Assembly: GCF_044324785.1 (NCBI RefSeq)
Contig: NZ_CP172127.1
DNA: 64,000 nt
Origin: Escherichia coli
GTDB taxonomy: Bacteria > Pseudomonadota > Gammaproteobacteria > Enterobacterales > Enterobacteriaceae
Strand: one strand, 5' to 3'
Made by a program: the position numbers and the translations under genes. This document shows, piece after piece, positions 43,197-43,738 of the stretch (position 1 is the stretch's first letter; every line of letters starts with the position of its first letter). The notes under the pieces were generated by a model, which searched no databases, was not told where the DNA came from, and saw only the letters and a list, made by a program, of their open reading frames with translations.

Positions 43197-43738
43197 AGTT
43201 TGTGTAAGATAACGAACTGTTTTTTCTAATTGCTCAGGACTTGCGTGTCGGGGCGTTGGCGGTAATGCATTGACCCAGGGTTGGTAAAAAATAATAAAAG
43301 GAAGTGATAGTAGTAATGATATAAAACAAAGAGGTGTTATTTTTTTATATGTAAATTTTTAATAAAAGGCGTTATTTCATTATTATTTATAATGAGTTAT
43401 GAATGTTTATTTTATTACGGTTGGTAGGAATATAAAAAAAGTATTTTTTTCAGTTGGTTCGCTATTTTAAAAAGGAATTCATATGAGAAATAAAAAATAA
43501 TTATGTTATTTATTGGTAGATTGAATTGACAGGGTGCAGAAATCTGAGGGTAAGAAAAGTCAGCAACAACAATCCACTACATCAACAGACCAGCAATCGC
43601 GTGCCGCGATACGCTGGAAATAACCGCAGATTGAACTGGTGGATGGTGTGACTGGCATCAGTCAGTGATGACTTTTTAGCAAACTATGTTCGACCAGTCA
43701 GCATATTTGCTGATTGGTCGAATTGATTAACAATAATG

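Follow-up and report, generated by a model that had tools for sequence, protein, structure and literature searches.

Known configurations of the yfbL–elaD region

In K-12, yfbK (b2270), a vWA-domain putative lipoprotein gene, lies between yfbL and elaD. The K-12-derived O16:H48 genome is annotated in the order yfbM, yfbL (minus strand), yfbK (plus strand, 1,728 bp, "vWA domain-containing protein"), elaD (minus strand), and rbn, and the MG1655 records carry the same annotation at yfbL–yfbK–elaD. Strands are given here in the orientation of the analyzed DNA, in which K-12 yfbK runs on the plus strand. According to surveys of the neighboring elaD, B2/ExPEC strains lack this gene and most other strains carry it (Catic et al. 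2007, PMC1847702; Front Microbiol 2025, PMC12575377); neither paper mentions yfbK or yfbL. LldR binding at K-12 position 2,383,166 was reported from a gSELEX screen, where the peak is listed under the genes elaD, yfbK, and yfbL (PMC10272880). Should the peak fall within yfbK, as this listing suggests, the site would be part of the DNA that is deleted in the strains described below. Our literature search found no discussion of the yfbK deletion, though its scar sits in thousands of public genomes.

We analyzed this region in a stretch of 64,000 nucleotides of E. coli DNA (contig NZ_CP172127.1), referred to as the window. Judged from sequence comparison, its yfbL–elaD spacer is almost certainly the decayed remnant of yfbK after two deletions of single origin. 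An earlier reading of the same DNA from its letters alone (the sequence-only reading) had named elaD, yfbK, yfbL, yfbM as the K-12 order and had found yfbK missing. This order was correct; K-12-type genomes have the 1,728-bp yfbK between yfbL and elaD and not a direct yfbL–elaD adjacency. Relative to K-12, the gene is missing from the window by deletion, with remnants of its 5' end, interior, and 3' end kept.

Layout of the locus in the window

Open reading frames and Pfam matches gave the gene order nuoM and nuoN (plus strand), yfbM, yfbL, elaD, and rbn (minus strand), and elaA, elaB, and menF (plus strand). Synteny was conserved in the annotated regions, the window ORFs, and the Pfam matches, with yfbM–yfbL on one flank and elaD–rbn on the other. 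The nearest complete genome over 24 kb was that of strain N3 (99.0%), and the runners-up reached 98.3%. The features of the locus are as follows.

41772–42275, minus strand: yfbM (DUF1877), intact, left neighbor of the locus; from the ORF, Pfam DUF1877 (E = 4e-36), and the yfbM annotation in syntenic genomes
42378–43349, minus strand: frame of yfbL (M28 metallopeptidase), 323 codons open, ATG changed to TAT; from translations, alignments, and Pfam
43296–43608, no strand: "type B" segment, 313 bp, with yfbL codons 1–18, the yfbK 5' remnant, and the promoter spacer between them; identity to each of the intact-yfbK alleles ~70%
43350–43482, no strand: former yfbL/yfbK divergent promoter spacer, 133 bp, 21% GC, aligning to the 137-bp K-12 spacer
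43483–43608, plus strand: yfbK 5' remnant, equivalent to K-12 yfbK nt 1–132, ATG kept at 43483; from BLAST to K-12 and multiple alignment
43609–43629, plus strand: yfbK internal island of 21 nt, equivalent to K-12 nt 1456–1476 (codons IRWKYPQ), between deletions 1 and 2
43630–43668, plus strand: yfbK 3' remnant, equivalent to nt 1690–1728, the last 39 nt (12 codons and the TGA stop at 43666–43668)
43688–43723, no strand: hairpin in the yfbK/elaD convergent spacer, 16-bp stem, dG −33 kcal/mol, z −7.5 (inverted repeat I3); also in K-12
43739–44962, minus strand: elaD deubiquitinase, intact, 407 aa, right neighbor of the locus; Pfam ElaD_SseL-like_N, Peptidase_C48, and ElaD-SseL-like_C

The sequence-only reading had described 43197–43738 as a non-coding spacer of about 540 bp, very AT-rich and free of ORFs. 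These limits are set by the GTG at 43196, which starts the longest ATG/GTG/TTG-initiated yfbL ORF, and by the end of elaD at 43739. The ORF list indeed contains nothing longer than 41 aa in this interval, but 43197–43349 is yfbL coding sequence, namely its first 51 codons (153 nt), in frame and without stops, which fell outside the ORF because the ATG had lost one base. The true yfbL–elaD spacer is 389 bp (43350–43738). "Very AT-rich" is apt for the divergent spacer at 43350–43482, which presumably still holds the yfbL promoter, but not for the yfbK remnant at 43483–43668, with 41% GC; over the whole of 43197–43738, the GC content is 33.8%, against 51.6% for the window.

Variation was also seen beside the scar. 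The nuoN–yfbM spacer of the window (41706–41771) is only 66 bp, and the same point is occupied by yfbP–yfbO–yfbN (~2.6 kb) in K-12, by the IS3-family element ISEcB1 in BL21, and by an IS200/IS605 tnpA in FFFEB2; it looks like an insertion hot spot, with the K-12 genes as the lineage-specific state. The elaD gene is annotated as a frameshifted pseudogene in N3, the closest relative of the window (L008, 4349–5571), and in E118 (L043, 2850–4060), and decay is ongoing in several genes at the locus. A perfect 15-nt direct repeat, TGTTTTTTCTAATTG, occurs at 43218–43232 (yfbL, about codon 40) and at 43784–43798 (3' end of elaD, where K-12 elaD differs); it may be a chance occurrence or a substrate for further deletion of the whole spacer.

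Remnants of yfbK between yfbL and elaD

BLAST of 43197–43800 against the K-12 locus gave two collinear blocks, between which 1,556 bp of K-12 sequence were missing. Block 1 (43200–43608) ran from the 5' end of yfbL across the 137-bp divergent spacer into yfbK (nt 1–132), and block 2 (43629–43795) ran from the last 40 nt of yfbK across the convergent spacer into the 3' end of elaD. The yfbK 5' end (43483–43608) was part of an alignment 77% identical to K-12 (E = 2e-89) and was also aligned with seven alleles. On the 3' side, 43629–43795 was 93% identical to K-12, and 43629–43800 was 99% identical to EcPNK004. The ~20 nt left unaligned at the junction were considered as filler or diverged sequence, and this was dropped when they matched yfbK nt 1456–1476. 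The junction stretch ATACGCTGGAAATAACCG agrees with K-12 yfbK nt 1456–1473 (ATTCGCTGGAAATACCCG) at 17 of 18 positions, and with its counterpart in the other four full-length alleles at 16 of 18 positions in three and at only 14 of 18 in ST131. The match extends to 21 nt, through CAG, in most scar alleles, and the island encodes the conserved IRWKYP motif.

Mapping of the breakpoints against K-12 and other E. coli, which the sequence-only reading had proposed, placed deletion 1 at yfbK nt 133–1455 (1,323 bp) and deletion 2 at nt 1477–1689 (213 bp), which together removed 1,536 bp of yfbK; these are K-12 coordinates assigned by homology, and the 5' part of the scar is ~25–30% diverged from every known intact yfbK. 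The same reading had advised looking for short direct repeats at the junction, and none of note was found at the breakpoints; junction 1 has no microhomology, and junction 2 has ~1 nt at most (C-N-G). No IS remnant, terminal inverted repeats, or target-site duplication was found at 43608/43609 or 43629/43630. As yfbK itself accounts for all of the junction sequence and there are no repeats, an IS- or transposon-mediated deletion is not supported. The junction of AST215 (CTG) was also considered as a CGC-microhomology event, and this was dropped, most alleles having CAG, which matches the island side.

Both junctions were located at identical positions in all nine scar alleles that were aligned (the window, AST215, N3, 18KM2445, FFFEB2, E118, O157:H7, BL21, and G3X16-2), which indicates a single origin.

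Smaller lesions were found in the surviving pieces. A 5-nt deletion that wrecks the lipobox region of the 5' remnant was common to the window, AST215, and O157 in the multiple alignment. A 1-nt deletion, shared with AST215, results in ATG AGA AAT AAA AAA TAA, with a stop at codon 6 (43498–43500); the O157 scar has ATG>ATA in place of this deletion. In the island, TAC is changed to TAA at 43621–43623 in the window and N3. The vWF_A, VWA, and YfbK_C domains, which Pfam places at residues 102–568 of K-12 YfbK, correspond to the deleted nt 133–1455 and 1477–1689 and are absent from the remnant.

A deeply divergent allele at the 5' side of the scar

The 5' part of the scar belongs to the type B segment. 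In the multiple alignment, the left edge of this segment is sharp and lies at ~43296, in yfbL codon 18; identity falls there from 97–100% to ~70%, and the divergence ends at deletion junction 1. In a 100-nt identity profile of the window against yfbK-bearing genomes, both flanks were 94–100% identical, whereas 43300–43599 was only 71–81% identical. A pairwise matrix was calculated over a 350-column alignment of the yfbL N-terminus, the spacer, and the yfbK 5' end. Within groups, identity was 92–99% among the six intact-yfbK alleles (a cryptic Escherichia clade included) and 84–98% among the six scar alleles, while intact-yfbK and scar alleles were 67–74% identical to each other. E. albertii and L012, a distinct Escherichia species labelled "E. 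coli" SCPM-O-B-8794, were about equally distant from both groups (66–77%).

Over the 903 nt of yfbL next to the segment, fourfold-degenerate sites of the window differed by 4.3–9.6% from those of yfbK-bearing E. coli and by 13.7% from those of the cryptic clade. Compared with ~30% in the segment, this makes the split several times deeper than the local neutral divergence. Relaxed constraint alone was considered as the cause of the 70% identity and was found insufficient, given the 4–10% at the fourfold sites next door and a distance of only 10–16% among scar alleles. The two allele classes were also separated by a 169-nt probe, the identity of which was bimodal across genomes (2,589 genomes at 80% or more and 2,497 at 60–80%). 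Among the matches listed, yfbK was annotated in none of the former group and in all of the latter.

From these alignments, 43296 appears to mark a sharp recombination boundary or ancient-allele boundary inside yfbL codon 18. We infer that the 5' part of the scar derives from an old, divergent yfbL-5'/yfbK allele that was brought in or kept by recombination. The sequence-only reading had suggested a horizontally remodelled boundary, and the ~70% identity from 43296 to junction 1, set against 4–10% at the neighboring fourfold sites, gives it partial support. Among the matches listed from the E. coli search and the relatives recovered by the species-representative scan, there was neither a type B donor nor an intact parental allele, the nearest allele outside E. 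coli being that of L012 (77%), and no intact type B yfbK was found in the three Escherichia relatives recovered by that scan. In O157-type alleles, the boundary between types A and B lies instead near the yfbL start in the multiple alignment, which points to later reshuffling by ordinary recombination.

A single event could have made the type B segment and deletion 1 together, namely homology-facilitated illegitimate recombination (HFIR), in which DNA from a diverged Escherichia was joined homologously in yfbL (~43296) and illegitimately in the resident yfbK. The sharp switch at 43296, the end of the divergence at junction 1, and the lack of microhomology there would be expected from such an event. 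Likewise, among the matches listed, type B always occurs with the scar and type A always with an intact yfbK, and none of the E. coli matches listed has an intact type B yfbK. However, an ancient resident allele with later deletions fits the same data, the island and 3' remnant are too short to be typed, no donor was found, L012 being the nearest allele outside E. coli at only 77%, and the different A/B boundary of O157-type alleles reflects ordinary later recombination. We regard HFIR as an unlikely common origin of the type B segment and deletion 1.

It is similarly doubtful that the scar is one arm of an old two-allele system at yfbL–yfbK, arising from introgression with HFIR or from balancing selection. 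The type B split is deeper than that between E. coli and the cryptic clade, and both allele classes are near 50% frequency across phylogroups. If such a system were real, it would imply either introgression from an unsampled Escherichia lineage by HFIR, with the deletion made in the same event, or long-term balancing selection on the presence or absence of the YfbK/YfbL surface proteins.

Hairpin, expression signals, and coding potential

At 43688–43723, a stable, G+C-containing stem-loop was found, as looked for in a terminator. No U run lies just 3' of the stem, the flanks being TTGATTAAC on the plus strand and CATAGTTTG on the minus strand, and the consensus scan did not call a terminator. 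The hairpin probably forms the end of elaD transcripts and, in the past, would have done so for yfbK. In the whole window, the only Rfam match at the gathering score was the nuoG cis-regulatory RNA motif (RF01748, 50.3 bits) at 31536–31578.

The decayed yfbK could in principle have been reused, with the scar still encoding a micro-protein or a small RNA. Both deletions (1,323 and 213 bp) are multiples of 3, for which a retained function would account. In AST215, FFFEB2, and 18KM2445, the PGAP annotation includes a 44-aa fusion ORF as a "hypothetical protein"; the strong hairpin downstream would also suit a transcribed element. However, the fusion ORF is cut by the TAA in the window and N3, and the window, AST215, and O157 have either a frameshift around the natural ATG or have lost this codon. 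No Rfam family was found on the scar at the gathering score, an E-value scan gave only chance-level matches on the hairpin, and promoter-like hexamers in the spacer were not above the level of shuffled sequence. The high diversity among scar alleles also fits neutral decay. A functional scar is very unlikely, and apart from keeping the yfbL promoter spacer and the yfbK/elaD hairpin, the scar would have no role of its own.

Frequency, age, and direction of the deletion

A 321-nt junction probe was collinear, with at least 80% of its length covered at one site, in 2,577 of the 5,426 complete E. coli genomes, including BL21 and O157:H7, and at least 80% of K-12 yfbK was present in 2,514 of them. 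The scar haplotype is now in ~47% of complete E. coli genomes. The sub-type found in the window is a minority (~470–520 genomes), and yfbL is annotated as full length in it among the matches listed. B2 ST131 represents a fourth state of the locus, with yfbK present and elaD absent, in line with the published elaD surveys. K-12 and BL21 both belong to phylogroup A, yet they are unlike at this locus, and thus the alleles do not simply track clonal descent. The yfbK scar is an ordinary gene-loss polymorphism, shared and old.

The sequence-only reading had suggested a strain-specific indel for the missing gene. K-12 does have yfbK where the window does not, and the start lesion of yfbL is indeed private. 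That this isolate alone underwent a recent deletion or rearrangement is nonetheless extremely improbable, as the junction is collinear in nearly half of the complete genomes, the nine alleles with identical breakpoints come from distant lineages, and the scar alleles carry many secondary substitutions, which indicate that the scar is old.

The opposite direction of change would be a gain of yfbK by the K-12 lineage, with an ancestral, never-occupied state in the window. This is barely conceivable: elaD and yfbPON nearby are clearly variable accessory DNA and the region is low in GC, but the start codon and 132 nt of the yfbK 5' end, 21 nt of its interior, and its final 39 nt including the stop survive in the window, and E. 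albertii and the cryptic clade have an intact yfbK at the same position. Among the outgroups, E. albertii and Escherichia sp. MOD1-EC7003 have it beside yfbL, without elaD. The retained 5', internal, and 3' pieces, together with the intact outgroup gene, indicate loss in the window and not gain in K-12.

The yfbL gene and its missing start codon

The sequence-only reading had also noticed a disturbed 5' end of yfbL, and this is real: one base is missing between 43346 and 43347, which destroys the ATG, while the other 322 codons are intact. On the plus strand, the window reads TTTTTTT-ATATG at the start site, and all eight other aligned sequences covering the site read TTTTTTTCATATG. The Peptidase_M28 domain lies in an uninterrupted frame (PF04389, E = 2.4e-26, residues 94–316), with no stops in the 323 codons. 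The canonical start is absent, and the first in-frame ATG, GTG, or TTG is the GTG at 43196 (codon 52), which lies downstream of the N-terminal hydrophobic segment (MKKITPLCFISLLLSLPFIIFY). A correctly localized M28 peptidase from this gene is therefore unlikely, and YfbL would not be made as an exported or anchored peptidase here unless the base loss is a sequencing error.

None of the 5,426 genomes had the start lesion; the best match over 43300–43400 was AST215 (99.0%, with a 1-base gap). Among metagenome contigs, the mutant 26-mer had no exact match, and the wild-type 27-mer had only one, which makes this a weak comparison. Either the ATG was lost by a mutation private to this sequence or the base was missed in sequencing. 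As the other large genes of the window look intact, a true mutation is plausible, and a single-base error beside the run of seven T is also possible. The start lesion is unrelated to the yfbK deletion and is a separate, private event.

Elsewhere, yfbL has decayed differently. In O157:H7, BL21, and G3X16-2, 326 bp inside the gene (window 42762–43088) are deleted, and the genes are annotated there as frameshifted pseudogenes. Only 3,296 of the 5,426 genomes have this central segment of yfbL, and ~2,100 (~39%) are without it. Both yfbL and yfbK are dead in a large share of E. coli.

Close homologues of YfbL were recovered from Escherichia only. The next best were found in MAGs of Opitutales, Nitrospirae, Thiothrix, and Desulfobacterales (46–49% identical), followed by Acinetobacter (36–41%). 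This distribution suggests that yfbL may itself have been acquired horizontally by the genus Escherichia.

Proposed course of events and implications

In our reading of the spacer as a relic of yfbK, its history began from a K-12-like ancestor in which yfbL and yfbK were divergent and yfbK and elaD convergent. Two internal deletions took nt 133–1455 and 1477–1689 of yfbK, sparing pieces of 132, 21, and 39 nt. Smaller lesions followed, namely the 5-nt deletion in the lipobox region, the 1-nt deletion that creates the codon-6 stop, and the change of TAC to TAA within the island. From one origin, the haplotype reached its present share of ~47% of complete genomes. In many scar genomes, such as BL21 and O157:H7, yfbL has also lost its 326 bp, and in the window, yfbL is full length but lacks its ATG through the private 1-base loss.

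About half of E. coli genomes, including BL21 and O157:H7, carry an unannotated yfbK pseudogene, and in some of them a 44-aa "hypothetical protein" is spuriously annotated on it. At least four configurations of the locus segregate, which is relevant where yfbK and yfbL are taken as core K-12 genes, and the same caution applies to reading the elaD neighborhood as a virulence-linked island. As a small and clear-cut case of mosaic recombination, the deep-allele boundary may be of population-genetic interest. Beyond annotation, the finding has little significance.

Comparison with known systems

Compared with K-12 yfbK, the scar in the window has the same position and orientation and keeps the start region of the gene, 21 nt of its interior, and its final 39 nt with the stop. 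It differs in lacking 1,536 bp and the vWF_A, VWA, and YfbK_C domains, and its 5' remnant, ~77% identical, is frameshifted and has a stop codon. With these lesions and the missing domains, it should be regarded as a pseudogene scar and not as a gene.

The described presence/absence polymorphism of elaD concerns the adjacent gene and the same variable locus, where ST131, E. albertii, and the cryptic clade have rbn–yfbK–yfbL without elaD. In the window, by contrast, yfbK is the gene affected and elaD is intact.

In L012, yfbK is likewise cut to 5' and 3' remnants beside yfbL, and the 5' sequence is nearer to the window type than that of K-12 is (77% versus 70%). At ~5481–5994 of this locus (in reverse-complement orientation), rbn is followed directly by the different yfbK scar and then by yfbL. 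Unlike the window, L012 has other breakpoints, more of the 3' end kept, an intact lipobox region, and no elaD. As the breakpoints and the retained parts differ, L012 represents a separate loss of yfbK.

A further counterpart is found in BL21, O157:H7, and ~2,500 more complete E. coli genomes, whose unannotated yfbL–elaD spacer has the same junctions and the same 5-nt lipobox deletion as the window. BL21 and O157-type alleles differ from the window in the additional 326-bp deletion inside yfbL and by 13–16% in the 5' segment. On the strength of the shared junctions and lipobox lesion, the scar of the window and the spacer of BL21 and O157:H7 are the same allele by descent.
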